A DNA stretch of 32,000 nt from Bdellovibrionales bacterium (GTDB lineage Bacteria; Bdellovibrionota; Bdellovibrionia; Bdellovibrionales; UBA1609), in contig OZ252021.1 in NCBI GenBank assembly GCA_965247685.1, positions 600,001 to 632,000 of the forward strand, read 5' to 3'. Below are positions 7,997 through 25,112 of the stretch, in pieces. Every line of letters starts with the position of its first letter. Position 1 is the stretch's first letter. Made by a program: the position numbers and the translations under genes. A model generated the notes under the pieces. That model saw only the letters and a program-made list of their open reading frames with translations. It had not been told where the DNA came from and ran no database searches.

Positions 7997-8072
<76 letters not shown>

Positions 8073-8183
8073 AAATTCATCAAAAATTTAATCAAGAGTC
8101 TTCTTTTCTGTCAATAAACTTCCACGATAGCATTGATTTATTTTTTAATAAAGGATAGTTTTATTCATTGTATTTTTCTTTCT

Positions 8184-8273
8184 GGAGAGGTGGCAGAGTG
8201 GTCGATTGCACTGGTCTTGAAAATCAGCAGGCCTTTGCGGGTCTCGTGAGTTCGAATCTCACCCTCTCCGCCA
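8184..8273 (+). tRNA. tRNA-Ser (anticodon TGA)
   Basis: 90-nt class II tRNA. The acceptor stem is GGAGAGG/CCTCTCC and the anticodon loop is CTTGAAA. It has a long variable arm (GCAGGCCTTTGCGGGTC), a T-arm containing GGTTCGAATC-like sequence (GAGTTCGAATCTC) and an encoded CCA. Confidence 0.9.
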
Positions 8274-8381
8274 TTTTGCTAAATCAATTTATTTAGATCA
8301 ATGGTTATATATGGTTTTTTTAGACCTGTTTAACTCAAGAAAATATGTCAGATTAAAGATTTACTGACAGAAACTCTTTTG

Positions 8382-8975
8382 GAAAAAAATCGGATAAAGA
8401 TATAAGAAGTAGTTTTAAGGAAGAAAGAAATCTATCTTTTTGGCAGCGACTTTTTTTTCCAAAAATCTTCTAATTGATAATAACTTCTAAGATAATCATA
8501 AAAAATATGTATTATTAGGAAATGATAATCGAGAACTATCCATTGAGACAAAGCTTCTCCTTCTACATGCTTAGGTACAAGTCCATATTTATTTTTTATG
8601 TAATCTTGAAGAGCTAAGGATAGAGCCTGCACATGACGAGTGTTAAGCCCTGAAAGGGTTAAAATATTTTCATATACAGCTTCTTCAAAAGAAAACCATT
8701 CTGGATGAAGAGCCCCTTTATCTTTTGAAAATGAAACTAAATCGTTGAACCAATCTTTTTTTGAGAGTGGTTCAATGTGCTGATAGTAGTTTTGAATTAA
8801 TGGAATCAGTTTTGAAGGAACATCATCTTCTATAGGTAATTGGAATTGGATTTTATGACGAATAAGATTTGAAGATAAGTATTGGAATTTTTGAGTATGT
8901 AAAAGATGAATCTGTTTTTTAGTGATAAATTCTCCTGAGTGTTTATCAAGTTTTTTTAAATATCTTTTTAAAAGA
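8382..8975. repeat. Direct repeat copy 1 (~594 bp) of the 3' part of nadD::rsfS plus downstream flank
   Basis: Matches 10957..11550 at a constant offset of 2575 bp. Identity is near perfect. There is one synonymous difference inside the coding part (ACT/ACG Thr) and a few mismatches clustered in the first ~50 bp, the non-coding end. Confidence 0.9.
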
Positions 8976-8989
8976 GGTTGATCTATCAA
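8432..8989 (-). pseudogene. Displaced 3' fragment of nadD::rsfS (C-terminal part of NadD plus the complete RsfS-like domain)
   Basis: The 185-aa ORF is identical to residues ~146-324 of the 324-aa protein at 11007..11981. Only its first ~5 codons, including a TTG start, come from unrelated island DNA. The NadD N-terminal HxGH part is missing. Confidence 0.75.
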
Positions 8990-9171
8990 ACCATCAAATA
9001 TCTAGAATTGATTATGCTGTCGATTATCCTATAAAGTTTGATGACTTTTCAAAGTGCTTTGATATTAGATATAAACAATCAATTAGAGAATACATGGAGA
9101 TGTCAAGAAACTCCACTTCAAATAAAAGTTCAGAGAGTTGATTTAAAGATTCAGCAATACGAGGAAATTAG

Positions 9172-9420
9172 ATTCTTAGATGTTCGAGTCCTAATTTAGC
9201 TAGGCTTATTGAATTTAGATCAATTCCTACTGATACGACAGGTTATGTTGTTCCTGTTTCTAAAGATGGTGTGTTAGGTAAAGTAACAATTGCAGAATTA
9301 TCTTCAGAAAATAGTCAAGGTGGCGGAGGTTTAAGTAGAACGCAAGTTGATGCCAGAGTCAGGGATACAGTTGAGGATTGGGCTGAGGTTAGTAATTCAG
9401 CTTACTGTAAAGGAATCTAA
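9172..9420 (+). pseudogene. Orphan 3' gene fragment (unknown function, no start codon)
   Basis: An 82-codon open frame without any Met, ending at TAA 9418-9420 (…IPTDTTGYVVPVSKDGVLGKVTIAELSSENSQGGGGLSRTQVDARVRDTVEDWAEV…). It is preceded by an in-frame TAG. To me it is reminiscent of phage structural/fibre-like tails, but I cannot assign it. Confidence 0.35.
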
Positions 9421-9435
9421 GCAAAAAATTCATTT

Positions 9436-10518
9436 CTAAGTTTTTAAACATTTCAACATTCCATGATTATAATAAAGTATATATTTCCCAGATCGTTTTT
9501 TCTCTAATAGACCAGCTTTTTCTAAATCAGATAAGTATTTACTAGCTGTTTGATAGGTTATGTTTAATTTCTTACCCACAGCAGTTGGATAAGTTACAGG
9601 ATAAGTAAATAAATATTCTAGCAGCTCTTGGTTATAATTTAATTTATGTTTAGATTTAAGAATTTTTTTCATCTTATTTTTTTCTTCTATTATATCCGTG
9701 ATAACCTTTCGGGTAACTTCAGTTTGCCTGTGGAAAGCTTTCAGCATGAATTTAATAAACGTCAGCCAATGACCTGATTTTGTAATATTCAACAAACCAG
9801 AGTAATACTTTTGCCTGTTCTTAATAAGATAACCACTAACATACAACACAGGCCAATCAAGAAGTTTATAAAGTACCATCTGTAACACAACTAGTATTCT
9901 TCCTGTTCTTCCATTACCATCTAAAAAGGGGTGTATAGCTTCAAACTGATAATGGCTGATAGCTATTTTAATTAAAGGATCTATTTCTTTGTGTGAAGAA
10001 TGAATATAGTTCTCCCAGTTGCCCATTAAATCATTTATATGCCTTGGTGTAGGAGGCGTATAAATGGTTTTCGAATCCTCCACAATTTTATTTTCTTGTT
10101 TTTTAAAATACCCACCGTTTGACATGAGTTGACTGTGTATATCTAAGATAACTCTCGTTGGAAGAGATTGATAATTTTTAAGAGATTGAAATCCTCTATG
10201 AAGAGCATCTTTATATCTAAGAGTTTCTTTGCTATTGGGGTCTTTTTTCTTATCCAGCTTTATTTGAGCTTCTAAAAGTGTTTCAATAGTTGTATGAATT
10301 CCTTCTATTGCAGAACTGGATACACTTTCCTGTAAGATAGGAATATTCATTAAAAGAGAATAAGGATTTGGGATAGCTTGGCACAATCCATTTAGTTCAC
10401 CAATTGCTCTATTAGCTTTTATGGTGAGTTGTATTAGTTCTGGCTCAAGTAAATCCTCTTGTTTGAGATCAGGAGGTAACAGAGGTAAATCAAAAGAATA
10501 ATTAGGATTAAAAGTCAT
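9436..10518 (-). CDS. fic: Fic/DOC (Fido) family protein, class II type with a C-terminal winged-helix domain
   Basis: 360-aa ORF with the canonical Fic motif HPFLDGNGRTGR. It has an N-terminal Fic_N-like region carrying the inhibitory SxxxEG motif (SSAIEG). The C-terminus is wHTH-like (TYQTASKYLSDLEKAGLLEKKRSGKYILYYN). Confidence 0.9.
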   Translation of the reverse strand: MTFNPNYSFDLPLLPPDLKQEDLLEPELIQLTIKANRAIGELNGLCQAIPNPYSLLMNIPILQESVSSSAIEGIHTTIETLLEAQIKLDKKKDPNSKETLRYKDALHRGFQSLKNYQSLPTRVILDIHSQLMSNGGYFKKQENKIVEDSKTIYTPPTPRHINDLMGNWENYIHSSHKEIDPLIKIAISHYQFEAIHPFLDGNGRTGRILVVLQMVLYKLLDWPVLYVSGYLIKNRQKYYSGLLNITKSGHWLTFIKFMLKAFHRQTEVTRKVITDIIEEKNKMKKILKSKHKLNYNQELLEYLFTYPVTYPTAVGKKLNITYQTASKYLSDLEKAGLLEKKRSGKYILYYNHGMLKCLKT

Positions 10519-10579
10519 CTCTTAGGTTGCCAAAAATGATATACCTTTACTTAAAATACATCGATTTTTTATAGTTTTC

Positions 10580-10605
10580 TTAATATATTATAACCAATAT
10601 ATTAA
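10580..10605. promoter_or_regulatory. Perfect 10-bp inverted repeat upstream of fic (candidate operator)
   Basis: TTAATATATT-ataacc-AATATATTAA lies 62-87 nt upstream of the fic start codon. The sequence is AT-only, so chance occurrence in this AT-rich spacer is possible. Confidence 0.25.
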
Positions 10606-10956
10606 ATTTTTGTCAATTTTTTAATGTATTAATCTCTCATATTAAAAGAATCTATATTCGATACGATGGTAAAAACTTAGTTTTTAGGGTTCCTTTAGGG
10701 GTTTCATTCCAATTTTGAGAATTTTTCACCTTAGATTTTTTTATTTACATTTCAGAATCAACTGATATTTTTTCTTTTTTTTCAATGTATTTAACCCATT
10801 GATACATTTTATATTGGAAAAAGTTAGCGTCCTTAATAACAGTCTCTAATATAGATAGAGGCCTAACTAACAAGATCATAATACATTTAGCAGAGGTTTT
10901 TCCTTATCTGGGCTGGGGTGTTAAAACTAACGCTCCGAAATTGGCTGAAATAGCAA

Positions 10957-11550
10957 GAAAAAAATTGGATAAAGATATAAGAAGTGGCTTTAAGGAAGAA
11001 AGAAATCTATCTTTTTGGCAGCGACTTTTTTTTCCAAAAATCTTCTAATTGATAATAACTTCTAAGATAATCATAAAAAATATGTATTATTAGGAAATGA
11101 TAATCGAGAACTATCCATTGAGACAAAGCTTCTCCTTCTACATGCTTAGGTACAAGTCCATATTTATTTTTTATGTAATCTTGAAGAGCTAAGGATAGAG
11201 CCTGCACATGACGAGTGTTAAGCCCTGAAAGGGTTAAAATATTTTCATATACAGCTTCTTCAAAAGAAAACCATTCTGGATGAAGAGCCCCTTTATCTTT
11301 TGAAAATGAAACTAAATCGTTGAACCAATCTTTTTTTGAGAGTGGTTCAATGTGCTGATAGTAGTTTTGAATTAATGGAATCAGTTTTGAAGGAACATCA
11401 TCTTCTATAGGTAATTGGAATTGGATTTTATGACGAATAAGATTTGAAGATAAGTATTGGAATTTTTGAGTATGTAAAAGATGAATCTGTTTTTTCGTGA
11501 TAAATTCTCCTGAGTGTTTATCAAGTTTTTTTAAATATCTTTTTAAAAGA
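10957..11550. repeat. Direct repeat copy 2 (~594 bp), part of the intact nadD::rsfS gene
   Basis: Matches 8382..8975 (see copy 1). Identity stops abruptly at 11550/11551 versus 8975/8976. Confidence 0.9.
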
Positions 11551-11981
11551 ACAGGCCAATCTTTTTTCTTTGAAATCCACTCTCCAGAAGAATGAAAGAT
11601 TATAAGGAGGTGAACTTTTTCAATTATTTTTTCAAAAAATTTCCAATTATGCATTTGGAAAAGTAAATCTTCACCTACAATGAGGTAGGAGTTATCGTTG
11701 AGGTTGAGTGTTTCTAGTGTATCGATCGTGTAGTTCACCTCTTGCTTTTTTATTTCACAATCTAGTATTTGAGTTTTAGGAAAATCCTTAAATAAAACTT
11801 TAAGCATATCTATTCGATGTTCAGGTTTTGTTTGATATGCCGGTTTTTCTGGATTTTGATAGGATGGAATAATATGAATTTCATCAAAGTGAAATTGGTT
11901 AAAGCAAATTTCTACGAGGTGTTGATGCCCATTATGAGGAGGATCGAAACTGCCGCCGAATATTCCTATTTTTTTAACCAT
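11007..11981 (-). CDS. nadD: Nicotinate-nucleotide adenylyltransferase fused to a ribosomal silencing factor RsfS-like domain
   Basis: 324-aa ORF. The N-terminal ~215 aa carry NadD motifs (GIFGGSFDPPHNGH, IIPSYQNPEK, YTIDTL, SSNLIR). The C-terminal ~105 aa are RsfS/iojap-like (RHVQALSLALQDYIKNKYGLVPKHVEGEALSQWIVLDYHFLIIHIFYDYLRSYYQLEDFW). Confidence 0.85.
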   Translation of the reverse strand: MVKKIGIFGGSFDPPHNGHQHLVEICFNQFHFDEIHIIPSYQNPEKPAYQTKPEHRIDMLKVLFKDFPKTQILDCEIKKQEVNYTIDTLETLNLNDNSYLIVGEDLLFQMHNWKFFEKIIEKVHLLIIFHSSGEWISKKKDWPVLLKRYLKKLDKHSGEFITKKQIHLLHTQKFQYLSSNLIRHKIQFQLPIEDDVPSKLIPLIQNYYQHIEPLSKKDWFNDLVSFSKDKGALHPEWFSFEEAVYENILTLSGLNTRHVQALSLALQDYIKNKYGLVPKHVEGEALSQWIVLDYHFLIIHIFYDYLRSYYQLEDFWKKKSLPKR

Positions 11982-11988
11982 AATCAGT

Positions 11989-12459
11989 TTAACACTTAAG
12001 CTGAATTTCTAACATCTGACCTTTTTGACCTGGTCCCACCTTTGTAGGAGATTGATTGACACTGTTTTTAAAAAAGTGATTCCCTCTGCCACCTCTGCCC
12101 CCTTGAGCTAAAAGGTAAGGCTTATCCTGAGATAAAAGCATATCATGTTTTTTTGTTTTAATCCATGTATTCAAAGGAACCTCTATGTAGAGATCTTTTC
12201 CTTTTTGACCTGTTCTTCGGCGAGAGCTTCCCGGTTTTCCTGATTCAGCTTTGTATATTTTCTTATTTTTTAAATGAGCAAATGAATTAAGGTGGACATC
12301 AGCTTTCAAATAGACATTTCCTCCTCTTCCTCCATTGCCTCCATCGGGGCCACCTCTAGATTTACGACGAGAAGAAGCAAAACTCATACAGCCCGAGCCG
12401 CCTTTTCCTGATACAGCTGTAAATTGAATTGTATCGTTAGTTTTTTCTTTACTGAACAT
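11989..12459 (-). CDS. obg: Obg-fold (N-terminal glycine-rich domain) protein lacking the GTPase domain
   Basis: 156-aa ORF with Obg N-domain hallmarks ([36 protein letters not shown]). It ends at …MLEIQLKC*, where full-length Obg continues into the G1 P-loop. The start overlaps the rpmA stop (ATGTTCAGTAA), and nadD begins 8 nt after its stop. Confidence 0.8.
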
Positions 12460-22220: not shown

Positions 22221-24149
22221 ATGTACTTTTTAAAACAAATTTTTAAAGTGTCTTTTCTATTGATTTTTTTAAGCTTTAGTTTGTTCGCACAAACTAATGA
22301 AGAAGACACAGAAGCAGGTTCTCCTGCAAATTGTCCTTCTTGTGAGAATAGTTTTAGTTTGTTCCCACAAACTAATGAAGAAGATACAGAAGCAGGTTCT
22401 CCTGCAAATTGTCCTTCTTGTGAGAATAATTCTCCGTCAATGAGATTATCCAAGGATTTAGATTCCTTACGAAAAGCTAATGTGAAAACCTGTAATGTAA
22501 TATATTCGCCACATAATTCCATGAAAGACAGAATGGGGCTATCTGATTACTGGGCTCAAGAGCTGATAGGAGCGGATCTTTTAAGAGAAGAGTTAGAAAA
22601 AGTTCCTCCTCCTAAAACAAAGAATTTTATTGCTGTTTTTGACACTTCGACGAACAATCACAACGTTCATGTGAAGAATTTAATTTCTGATGAAGGCACT
22701 CAAGCTATTTTACCAGAATTAAAAGACCAAATAGTTTATGCTGAAGCAATTGATCCTCTTCAGTTTGTAGCAGCGGCTGAGCGTTTCCTCCGACAAGGGA
22801 CTCCTTCTTTTATCAATAATTCGGCGACTTATGTGTGGGAGAAGCTTTCGCGAACCATCTATGGGGCTTTTAAATCCTTATCTCCACCTTCTGTGCTAGT
22901 GACTAGTAGTGGTAATTACTATCCTATAGGTGTAGAGCAAATGAAAAGTGAAGCTTCAAAGGAGTTTTCAGCTATTATTGTGGGTAGCTTATCCCCCAAT
23001 GGGGTTGTGAGCAATCATTCTTCAGATGGAGAAGAAGTGCATATTCTAGCTCCTGCTGATGCATTTATCACAACTGCTGATGCTCAAGGGAATTATAGGC
23101 GATTTGGAGGCACCAGTGGAGCTGCTCCTTTAGTGACGGGTAGTTTAGCAGGATTTGAATGGCTTTCTGGTTATCATCCTACAGCCAAAGAGTCCAAAAT
23201 ACTTTTGGAAAAAACAGCTCTTCCTACACTCGAGTCCCTCGTGAAACCAAGAAGAAACGGGGTAGGTTTATTAAATTCCTATAAACTAGGAATGGTGGCT
23301 CAACGTTTAAAGCAAAAATGCCAGAACAAAAAGCCGTCTTGTTTTAAGAAAGAGATTGAAAATAATGAGAACTATATATTTAAAGTGGATCCAAATGTAA
23401 AGAATGAATTGTCGAGAGTGTTCCCTTCTTGTGCTATGAAAAATAGGTCTAAGCCACATGAGAATACAGTCCTATCTAGTTGTGAAGATAAGAAAAGAGT
23501 ATTTAAGCAGTTAAGAAAAGTAGCACTCCTTACTTCTCATCAAAAAGAGTTCTTAGATGCTTTAAGCTGTATCTATAAAGAGGAAGGATTTGATAGAAAT
23601 GCAAAAGCTTTAAAAAATTTATCTAGATTTTCTAGTTTCAAAAGAGAATTCTTTGAAAGATTATTGACAGGAATGATAGAGGATTTTGATCCTAATATGA
23701 GACAAGCAGCTGTTAGGCAAGCGAGTAAGTTAGGATATGAACGCGGCTTTCAATTGCTAGAAAAATCGATACAAACTTCAATTTATAAAGTTAAAAAAGC
23801 AGTTGTTAAGTCCGCGAGTCAGATGGGAGGTCCGAAAGGCTTAGAGATGTTAGAAAAATTGGGACAAGATTCAAATCCTGAAGTTAGAAGCATAGTTGCT
23901 TATTACGCGAGTCAGATGGAAGATGAGCAAGGCTTAGAGATTTTAGAAAAATTGGCAAAAGATCCAGACCCTGCAGTTAGACAAGCAGTTGTTTATTATG
24001 CGAGTCAGATGGGAGGCGATCGAGTTATTGAGTTGTTGCAACAATTAGCAGCTGATGAAAATCACAAGGTCAGAGAACTTGCAAAGTTGTTGCTCGCAAA
24101 GTTGTTGCTCAATGAAAAAATGAAGAAACGGAAAATAAATAATTCATAA
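22221..24149 (+). CDS. Secreted subtilase (S8)-like protein with 4-Cys module and C-terminal HEAT-like repeats (family copy A)
   Basis: 642-aa ORF with a Sec signal peptide (…FLSFSLFA/QT). The S8 motif series is present (IAVFDT, HNVHVKNLI, SFINNS, VTSSGNYY, GTSGAAPLVTGSLAG). A Cys module (KCQNKKPSC…FPSCA…SSCED) follows, then about 4-5 degenerate 31-aa HEAT/PBS-like repeats (DPDPAVRQAVVYYASQMGG). Confidence 0.8.
   Translation: MYFLKQIFKVSFLLIFLSFSLFAQTNEEDTEAGSPANCPSCENSFSLFPQTNEEDTEAGSPANCPSCENNSPSMRLSKDLDSLRKANVKTCNVIYSPHNSMKDRMGLSDYWAQELIGADLLREELEKVPPPKTKNFIAVFDTSTNNHNVHVKNLISDEGTQAILPELKDQIVYAEAIDPLQFVAAAERFLRQGTPSFINNSATYVWEKLSRTIYGAFKSLSPPSVLVTSSGNYYPIGVEQMKSEASKEFSAIIVGSLSPNGVVSNHSSDGEEVHILAPADAFITTADAQGNYRRFGGTSGAAPLVTGSLAGFEWLSGYHPTAKESKILLEKTALPTLESLVKPRRNGVGLLNSYKLGMVAQRLKQKCQNKKPSCFKKEIENNENYIFKVDPNVKNELSRVFPSCAMKNRSKPHENTVLSSCEDKKRVFKQLRKVALLTSHQKEFLDALSCIYKEEGFDRNAKALKNLSRFSSFKREFFERLLTGMIEDFDPNMRQAAVRQASKLGYERGFQLLEKSIQTSIYKVKKAVVKSASQMGGPKGLEMLEKLGQDSNPEVRSIVAYYASQMEDEQGLEILEKLAKDPDPAVRQAVVYYASQMGGDRVIELLQQLAADENHKVRELAKLLLAKLLLNEKMKKRKINNS
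22275..22430 (+). repeat. 78-nt tandem duplication (2 units) inside the 5' end of copy A
   Basis: Units 22275-22352 and 22353-22430 differ at only a few positions. They encode FSLFAQTNEEDTEAGSPANCPSCENS / FSLFPQTNEEDTEAGSPANCPSCENN. Confidence 0.9.
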
Positions 24150-24227: not shown

Positions 24228-25112
24228 ATGTACTTTTTAAAACAAATTTTTAAAGTGTCTTTTCTATTGATTTTTTTAAGTATTAGTTTGTTCGCACAAG
24301 CTAATGAAGAAGACACAGAAGCAGGTTCTCCTGCAAATTGTCCTTCTTGTGAGGATAATTCTCCTTTAATACAATTAACCAAGGATATACTGGGGTTTCC
24401 AAAAAGACTCTTCATAAATGAGTTTTCTTGGCTAAAGGATACGTTGTTGAGTCCACATACAAAAGGAAAAGCTAAGATGAATACCTGTGATGTAATATAT
24501 TCGACACGTAATTTCATAAAATCATCACTAATACCATTATCTCTATCTGATTACTGGGCTCAAGAGATGATAGGAGCGGATCTTTTAAGAGAAGAGTTAG
24601 AAAAAGTTCCTCCTCCTAAAACAAAGAATTTTATTGCTGTTTTTGACACTTCGACGAACAATCACAACGTTCATGTGAAGAATTTAATTTCTGATGAAGG
24701 CACTCAAGCTATTTTACCAGAATTAAAAGACCAAATAGTTTATGCTGAAGCAATTGATCCTCTTCAGTTTGTAGCAGCGGCTGAGCGTTTCCTCCGACAA
24801 GGGACTCCTTCTTTTATCAATAATTCGCTGAGTTGGAGTTCGCGAACCGGCTATGATGCTTATAAATCCTTATCTCCACCTTCTGTGATAGTGACTGCCA
24901 GTGGTAATAGATATCCTAGTAGTTGTATAGGGCAAATAAAAAGCGAAGCTTCAAAGGAGTTTTCAGCTATTATTGTGGGTAGCCTTTCTGCAACTGGTCG
25001 TGTGAGCACATTTTCTTCATCTGGACCTGATGTTAAAAGAATGGCTGCTTATTATGCGAAGGAGATGGGAGGCAAGGGCTTAGAGTTGTTAATAAGAGAA
25101 GATGACAAATGA
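24228..25112 (+). pseudogene. In-frame deletion derivative of the S8-HEAT family (copy B), lacking the catalytic Ser region, Cys module and all but the last HEAT repeat
   Basis: The 294-aa ORF is colinear with copy C up to …FSSSG (25025), then jumps to the last repeat (PDVKRMAAYYAKEMGGKGLELLIREDDK). This equals removal of C coordinates 28550-30055, which is 1506 nt or 502 codons (796-502=294). The frame remains open, so it could still be expressed as a non-catalytic protein. Confidence 0.7.

Follow-up and report, generated by a model that had tools for sequence, protein, structure and literature searches.

A SoFic-type fic gene between 594-bp direct repeats of the nadD::rsfS 3' region in an uncultured Bdellovibrionales bacterium

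The DNA analysed here, a stretch of 32,000 nucleotides from a Bdellovibrionales bacterium (contig OZ252021.1 of assembly GCA_965247685.1, positions 600,001 to 632,000; referred to as the window), contains an insert with a fic gene that is bracketed by two long direct repeats of the 3' region of nadD::rsfS, a gene coding for a fusion of NadD and RsfS. This repeat-insert-repeat structure is real and belongs to an ordinary kind of rearrangement; the route of its formation is not decidable from this sequence. Our favoured reading, to which we assign a probability of roughly 0.4, is a Campbell-type integration, in which a circle carrying the repeated host segment (H) together with the insert (C) entered the chromosome by a single homologous crossover and without an integrase. 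In favour of this reading stand the exact H-C-H topology, a right copy that completes a full-length gene, and the lack of any integrase or transposase in the 32 kb. Mechanisms of this class are textbook knowledge, and the cargo belongs to a defence system already described; the locus is a fresh instance of a known rearrangement.

Two copies of the nadD::rsfS 3' region

The repeat copies (Table 1) lie at an offset of 2575 bp and share 99.3% identity over 594 bp, with four mismatches, which bears out a preliminary description of this DNA made from its letters alone. Chance cannot be the source of such a repeat pair. In a fixed-offset comparison the homology breaks off sharply at either end, and no similarity is left beyond both ends. 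Furthermore, a self-BLAST against the whole window revealed no further repeat involving positions 8274-10956. The inner end of the repeat does not coincide with a gene end but lies midway through the NadD domain. Open reading frames (ORFs), Pfam domains and full-length homologues agreed with the earlier statement that the right copy is part of an intact nadD::rsfS gene and that the left copy is 5'-truncated. The sequences 3' of the two copies are unrelated; a simple head-to-tail tandem duplication does not give this arrangement, and an extra deletion would be needed.

Table 1. Features of the repeat-insert-repeat locus and its tRNA flank (positions in the window)
Feature	Position	Strand	Remarks
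tRNA-Asn(GUU)	7997..8072	-	member of the conserved tRNA-Ser/tRNA-Asn/serS block
tRNA-Ser(UGA)	8184..8273	+	neighbours nadD::rsfS in all relatives; 3' end faces the insert
Flank between left copy and tRNA-Ser	8274..8381		108 bp; native rsfS 3' flank or deletion scar; alignable to no relative
Left copy of the repeat (H)	8382..8975	-	5'-truncated nadD::rsfS duplicate, residues 145-324, plus 50 bp of 3' flank
ORF of the truncated copy	8432..8989	-	185 residues; RsfS domain only; TTG start
Insert (C)	8976..10956		1981 bp between the repeat copies; three-block mosaic
Gene fragment	8977..9417	+	decayed, 5'-truncated, two in-frame stops, cut at the left-repeat junction
Conserved Fic cassette	9419..10656	-	promoter region and ORF, 1.24 kb; 79-85% DNA identity to loci L041, L042/L043 and L044
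fic (SoFic-type)	9436..10518	-	360 residues; Fic_N, Fic and SoFic-like C-terminal winged helix
fic promoter	10587..10616	-	perfect sigma-70 consensus TTGACA-18-TATAAT, 12/12
Third block	10657..10956		300 bp between Fic cassette and right copy; no homologue found
Right copy of the repeat (H)	10957..11550	-	last 544 coding bp of intact nadD::rsfS plus 50 bp past the stop
Intact nadD::rsfS fusion	11007..11981	-	324 residues; nicotinate mononucleotide adenylyltransferase domain at residues 7-183, RsfS at 243-316

The mismatches had been reported to cluster at the non-coding end of the repeat. This holds for three of them (8391, 8411 and 8413), which are located in the 3' untranslated region (UTR), but not for the synonymous mismatch at 8921, found 55 bp from the opposite repeat end. 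Hence all four lie at most 55 bp from one end or the other, and the central 507 bp are identical between the copies. For end-clustering of this degree, a uniform model gives a probability of 0.0012 and a silent-site model one of 0.015; the threshold was picked post hoc. All four differences are silent (three in the 3' UTR, one synonymous), for which P is about 0.05 in an unconstrained duplicate decaying in place. Clustering at the repeat ends hints at gene conversion homogenising the interior; exchange of this type between the copies would keep their interiors identical and would wipe out the signals of age and of silent sites alike. The high identity had been taken to imply a recent event, which is not established, since mismatches clustered at the ends around an identical centre fit gene conversion. 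The repeats would also allow RecA-dependent loss of the insert, by which the empty site is restored. A 24-mer from the repeat interior had no exact match in the JGI metagenomes.

In the intact gene, Pfam identified CTP_transf_like (cytidylyltransferase-like, NadD) and RsfS. The 324-residue ORF aligns end to end with homologues of 319-325 residues in relatives, and both domains were present in 24 homologues of 315-333 residues. Identity to the closest relative amounts to 71% at the protein and 79% at the DNA level. The fusion is conserved in at least 24 homologues of the lineage to which the window belongs and also occurs in some metagenome-assembled genomes of Chloroflexota, as seen from full-length tblastn matches with 22-36% identity (L006, L007, L027). 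A scan of genome contigs recovered only distant RsfS and NadD-RsfS proteins, which came from Bacteroidota and Chloroflexota. Two RsfS-only homologues (P0025 and P0026) that were considered as parallel duplicates proved to be fusion genes with frameshifts, located in contigs prone to errors.

The start codon and the first four codons of the ORF in the truncated copy are located in insert DNA, and the ORF has no internal Met codon and no clear Shine-Dalgarno sequence. Because it has neither a Met codon nor a convincing ribosome-binding site, it is probably a pseudogene fragment and an untranslated remnant. Transcription is a separate matter. The preliminary description had called the copy promoter-less, and this was not established: it is co-oriented with fic and situated downstream of the fic promoter with its 12/12 consensus match, no terminator-like site was predicted between the two genes, and a weak promoter-like site (10/12) was found at 9052-9023. 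The truncated copy may thus be transcribed. For annotation, the 185-residue 'RsfS' ORF should be regarded as a duplication remnant and not as a second gene.

The insert and its Fic cassette

The composition given earlier for the insert, namely fic, a gene fragment and about 440 bp of AT-rich non-coding DNA, was found again, the non-coding stretch upstream of fic comprising 438 bp with a G+C content of 27%. Overall the insert has 31% G+C versus 34% in the window, and Rfam models detected nothing in it. The insert is thus of mosaic composition, with a single intact defence cassette that has its own promoter and, besides it, decayed debris. This bears on the idea of a circle of about 2.6 kb, which is not established: a decayed mosaic may be what remains of something larger.

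By its domains as well as its catalytic and inhibitory motifs, the fic gene is classified as a full-length member of the SoFic family. Its product carries the Pfam domains PF13784, PF02661 and PF21248, and the PADLOC SoFic profile matched it with E=1.6e-103, covering residues 11-358. Solved SoFic structures (PDB 3EQX, 3ZCN and others) also matched, with E about 1e-57. The catalytic motif HPFLDGNGRTGR at residue 196 fits HxFx(D/E)GNGRxxR, and the inhibitory-helix motif SSAIEG at residue 68 fits (S/T)xxxE(G/N). SoFic has been described as a single-protein anti-phage system (bioRxiv 10.1101/2022.05.11.491447) and is a toxic AMPylase (PMC12249575). The match to the SoFic profile and structures covers the cargo protein from end to end, and its role in defence against phages is a putative one. 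An AS1-like small ORF was not evident downstream of fic.

The similarity that defines the Fic cassette begins about 140 bp upstream of the ATG and ends within about 17 bp of the stop codon; identity to L041 extends some 55 bp beyond the cassette, to roughly position 10712. The 140 bp or so upstream of fic are conserved across four otherwise unrelated loci. Within them the -35 hexamer TTGACA is invariant in all four cassettes, and the -10 hexamer TATAAT is present in the window, L041 and L044 and differs in L042. The gene thus seems to travel with its own strong promoter, from which it is presumably expressed. The genomic context varies among these Oligoflexia-like contigs: in L041 the cassette is accompanied by integrase fragments, AbiEii and a tRNA-Val, in L042 it is located between an HhH-GPD gene and tRNA-Met/rpoD, and in L044 it lies beside AbiEii. 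Given DNA identities of 79-85% in three contexts, against 79% at the DNA and 71% at the protein level for nadD::rsfS, the cassette is, to judge from these comparisons, mobile among related genomes. The homologues of fic were labelled Oligoflexia, and one distant NadD-RsfS homologue was labelled Bdellovibrionales. Relatives of Fic in the JGI metagenomes had identities of 43% or less.

As a further observation on these loci, genes with an AbiEii domain (L041 7372-8238, L044 12044-12913) are situated within about 1-2 kb of the Fic cassette. The arrangement is consistent with a location of fic in defence islands in L041 and L044.

The remaining blocks of the insert proved less informative. A single unit of a repeat of about 30 residues, 'GLSxxQVDARVxxxVxDWAE', is encoded in the final 82 codons (9172-9417) of the gene fragment. 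An exhaustive search with these codons yielded matches to 80 proteins, always at this 'GLSxxQVDARV...DWAE' unit, which recurs as many as 15 times in proteins 300-2300 residues long. The link of this repeat family to phage tails is weak, with 23.4 bits for Phage_tail_C against a cutoff of 23.7 and one tail-fibre PHROG at E=6e-4. Phage records, viral contigs and a word-indexed protein search gave no match to the fragment, and phage records none to the related repeat protein P0193.

A search of plasmids and phages with positions 8976-10956 had been proposed as a check. In the plasmid and phage records searched, only a region of about 90 bp around the conserved Fic motif was matched, and the core of the insert corresponds to the cassette common to related chromosomes. 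Judged by these searches, the insert is not a recognisable plasmid or phage. The preliminary description had stated that the structure is not the short att duplication left by an integrase, and the content of the window agrees with this. Domains of integrases, recombinases and transposases were absent from the scanned ORFs of at least 100 residues in the 32-kb window, the remaining ORFs being syntenic core genes. Moreover, the 3' end of tRNA-Ser is not repeated: its terminal 24-mer occurs once in the window, even with three mismatches allowed, and no att-type repeat was found.

The rsfS/tRNA-Ser site in relatives

Comparison with relatives lacking the insert, which had also been suggested, was possible at this site. 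It was compared in four relatives of this uncultured lineage (L037, L038, L045 and L046), whose contigs measure about 1.1-1.4 Mb. The gene order RF1/PrmC/AroA/TPR/serS, nadD::rsfS, L27/L21/RNase G/GatBAC/LigA is conserved, and three states were found at the rsfS/tRNA-Ser site. Empty sites are present in L037 (71% protein identity) and L046 (65%), in which the rsfS stop codon is separated from tRNA-Ser by 84 bp and 145 bp, respectively. In the window, the stop codon of the left copy is 158 bp from tRNA-Ser. L045 has a single gene of 274 residues (X) between rsfS and tRNA-Ser and represents the single-copy precursor state of L038.

In L038, a tandem duplication with a unit of about 1055 bp runs from about 130 bp before the rsfS stop codon through X to 26 nt into tRNA-Ser. 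The result is the order rsfS, X, tRNA fragment with rsfS fragment, X', tRNA-Ser. The X paralogues are 76-80% identical, and the arrangement is that of a simple tandem duplication. Both this duplication and that in the window start inside rsfS and leave a displaced rsfS 3' fragment beside tRNA-Ser, but L038 keeps both copies of the intervening gene whereas the window holds only one copy of the insert. From these comparisons the rsfS/tRNA-Ser junction is a variable spot, at which L038 provides a second, independent duplication of the rsfS end.

The duplicated gene of L038 (10833-12907) is lipoprotein-like, with products of 277 and 260 residues. Identity between the duplicates is itself a mosaic: 76 nt of the rsfS fragment reach 99%, the body of the gene 76-80% and the distal end 96%. 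This pattern suggests that the duplication is old and was overlaid by partial gene conversion or by diversifying selection.

The left copy had been described as continuing into the native downstream flank next to tRNA-Ser. The conserved neighbourhood of tRNA-Ser, tRNA-Asn and serS is compatible with this part of the description; the 108-bp flank itself aligns with no relative. Alignment of the rsfS-to-tRNA-Ser spacers of relatives revealed no conservation that would mark 8274-8381 as native, and when insert and flank were compared with the rsfS-serS regions of relatives (tblastx, blastn), only rsfS and the tRNAs matched. A hairpin in 8274-8381 was considered as the native rsfS terminator and dismissed, since it was not significant (z = -0.7). 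A sub-threshold Rfam match to the small RNA family sX4 at 8180-8309 (+) scored 37.9 bits against a gathering score of 70; it overlaps tRNA-Ser, and what the sX4 model picks up is almost certainly the tRNA.

A different kind of structure surrounds the cassette in L042. Perfect 57-bp direct repeats (8803-8859 and 11421-11477), 14 nt of which belong to the 3' end of tRNA-Met, lie 2618 bp apart and enclose an NYN-domain pseudogene, the SoFic gene and what may be a fragment of HsdS (at an E value of only 0.089), with no integrase. By its sequence features, this patch looks like the att-type scar of a decayed integrative island. The similarity of its repeat spacing to that of the window (2575 bp) was dismissed as a coincidence, since only the Fic cassette is common to the two loci.

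Formation of the structure and known counterparts

For a Campbell-type integration, the ancestral order would have been nadD::rsfS, a short spacer and tRNA-Ser, like that of L037 and L046. A decayed defence-island patch with an intact, self-promoted SoFic gene would have been located just downstream of rsfS, either in a donor or at an earlier time in this lineage. This patch would have been linked to the terminal 594 bp of nadD::rsfS and its 3' flank, for example by aberrant excision or circularisation of a fragment. In a chromosome without the patch, the circle would have recombined via a single RecA-type crossover within the 594 bp. The product would read intact nadD::rsfS, insert, 5'-truncated second gene end, original flank and tRNA-Ser, and the essential nadD::rsfS would survive because the homology segment includes the 3' end of the gene. 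The 158-bp spacer, which we regard as within the range of the empty-site relatives, leans to such an integration, as does the lack of a second copy of C in the flank (8274-8381). The four silent differences point in the same direction, as they are what two functional alleles would leave if each gave rise to one copy. The mobility of the Fic cassette among related genomes also counts in favour of this reading.

Several points weigh against this reading. The H-C-H order fits a Campbell product, as the preliminary description had argued, but is not diagnostic, because a tandem duplication followed by a deletion gives a topologically identical product; it is no proof of a circle. A circular form, a donor element or a conspecific empty site was not found in the collections searched, and the flank cannot be shown to be native. 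L038 demonstrates a plain tandem duplication that starts inside rsfS at the same site, so local duplication happens. Finally, the silent-site argument consists of four mismatches only, which gene conversion could explain too.

In a scenario that we rate as only somewhat less probable, the insert was already present between rsfS and tRNA-Ser, and an unequal or illegitimate exchange duplicated the 594 bp and the insert in place to H-C-H-C. A later deletion, beginning where the second H ends, would then have taken away the second C and extended into the flank. A duplication of this type is carried by L038 at the same site, with L045 as its single-copy precursor. Neither transfer nor a circle is needed, nor are coincident breakpoints, because the start of the deletion defines the end of the homology, and, Fic being toxic, the loss of one of two gene copies could be favoured. 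This scenario demands two rare illegitimate events, though, and homologous recombination would readily collapse the intermediate. In 8274-8381 nothing was left of a second copy of the insert, and the 158 bp between left copy and tRNA look like an undeleted native spacer. Four silent mismatches are mildly unexpected for a decaying duplicate unless gene conversion acts. Both duplication with deletion and Campbell-type integration require that C was once located directly downstream of rsfS, here or in a donor.

That a chimeric join or the mis-assembly of a strain mixture in a long-read metagenome created the second copy appears quite improbable. The source is indeed a metagenome contig (1.28 Mb) of an uncultured organism, for which the collections searched hold no second independent sequence of the species; look-ups of exact matches to the NadD::RsfS, Fic and truncated-ORF proteins gave no sister contig either. 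The copies differ at four positions and were hence assembled as distinct sequences, the structure is situated in the interior of a contig of megabase size, and long reads easily span 0.6-kb repeats that are 2 kb apart. Furthermore, the junction 8975/8976 joins mid-nadD to a decayed gene fragment, a combination that is in no natural single-copy haplotype.

The lowest probability of the explanations considered goes to the site-specific integration of a larger island or prophage that bore an integrase and a surrogate nadD::rsfS 3' end, and that later lost the integrase and most of its cargo by deletion. Surrogate 3' ends are known from integrative elements such as e14 and phage 21 in icd of E. 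coli and from tRNA-targeting islands; the duplications they leave measure tens to about 165 bp, are diverged, and are accompanied by an integrase. As with these elements, the target gene in the window is intact, and a 3' fragment of it stands displaced beyond the insert. Its insert faces the 3' end of a tRNA and holds decayed gene debris, and the Fic patches of relatives resemble decayed tRNA-targeting islands (57-bp repeats in L042, integrase fragments by tRNA-Val in L041). In contrast, a nearly identical repeat of 594 bp at 99.3% far exceeds an att duplication (57 bp in L042) and has its inner end within the NadD domain, and neither an integrase nor a repeat derived from tRNA-Ser is present in the 32 kb. 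Other routes, for example template switching, take up the remainder of the probability.

Among known arrangements, Campbell products and duplication-insertion merodiploids, as obtained with suicide plasmids or by transformation, have the same direct repeats of a host segment around foreign DNA. In pneumococcal merodiploids an intact essential gene stands beside a disrupted copy, and tandem duplications of 100-900 kb arise by interchromatid exchange (PMC3784515). The combination of an intact and a truncated essential gene, the lack of an element-encoded recombinase and the expected reversibility by recombination between the repeats are the same here. The locus differs from them as a natural event in an uncultured bacterium with a small genome, with no donor circle known and with repeats of 594 bp that are neither IS-sized nor kilobase in length. 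The microcin H47 island of E. coli is likewise small, integrase-less and flanked by unusually long direct repeats (PMC3191183). These are extensive and imperfect, and their recombination is site-specific (PMC3191183), whereas the repeats in the window are a duplicated gene end.

Should the insert indeed have entered through homology, the locus would be a natural case in which a reduced genome gained a defence gene next to an essential one without an integrase, and in a reversible form. It would then bear on the turnover of defence repertoires in small genomes without mobile-element machinery. An unlikely extension of this is that the rsfS/tRNA-Ser junction is a recurrent hotspot of homology-driven, duplicative cargo events that always spare nadD::rsfS, with the SoFic cassette as an integrase-free passenger on short host homology that is kept excisable by gene-converted repeats.

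Elsewhere in the window, two large paralogues at 22221-24149 (+) and 27752-30142 (+), of 642 and 796 residues, combine a subtilase domain (Peptidase_S8) with C-terminal HEAT repeats. A 294-residue ORF between them (24228-25112, +) has a weak subtilase match, and several ORFs without Pfam matches are located nearby. Between rpmA and nadD::rsfS, obg (11989-12459, -) encodes the N-terminal Obg fold only (Pfam GTP1_OBG) and is devoid of the GTPase domain. The same short form, of 155-158 residues across the loci, was found in L037 (9523-9993), L038 (9540-10016), L045 (5540-6016) and L046 (5531-5998). Since it is kept in all relatives examined, the short obg is not a local truncation.

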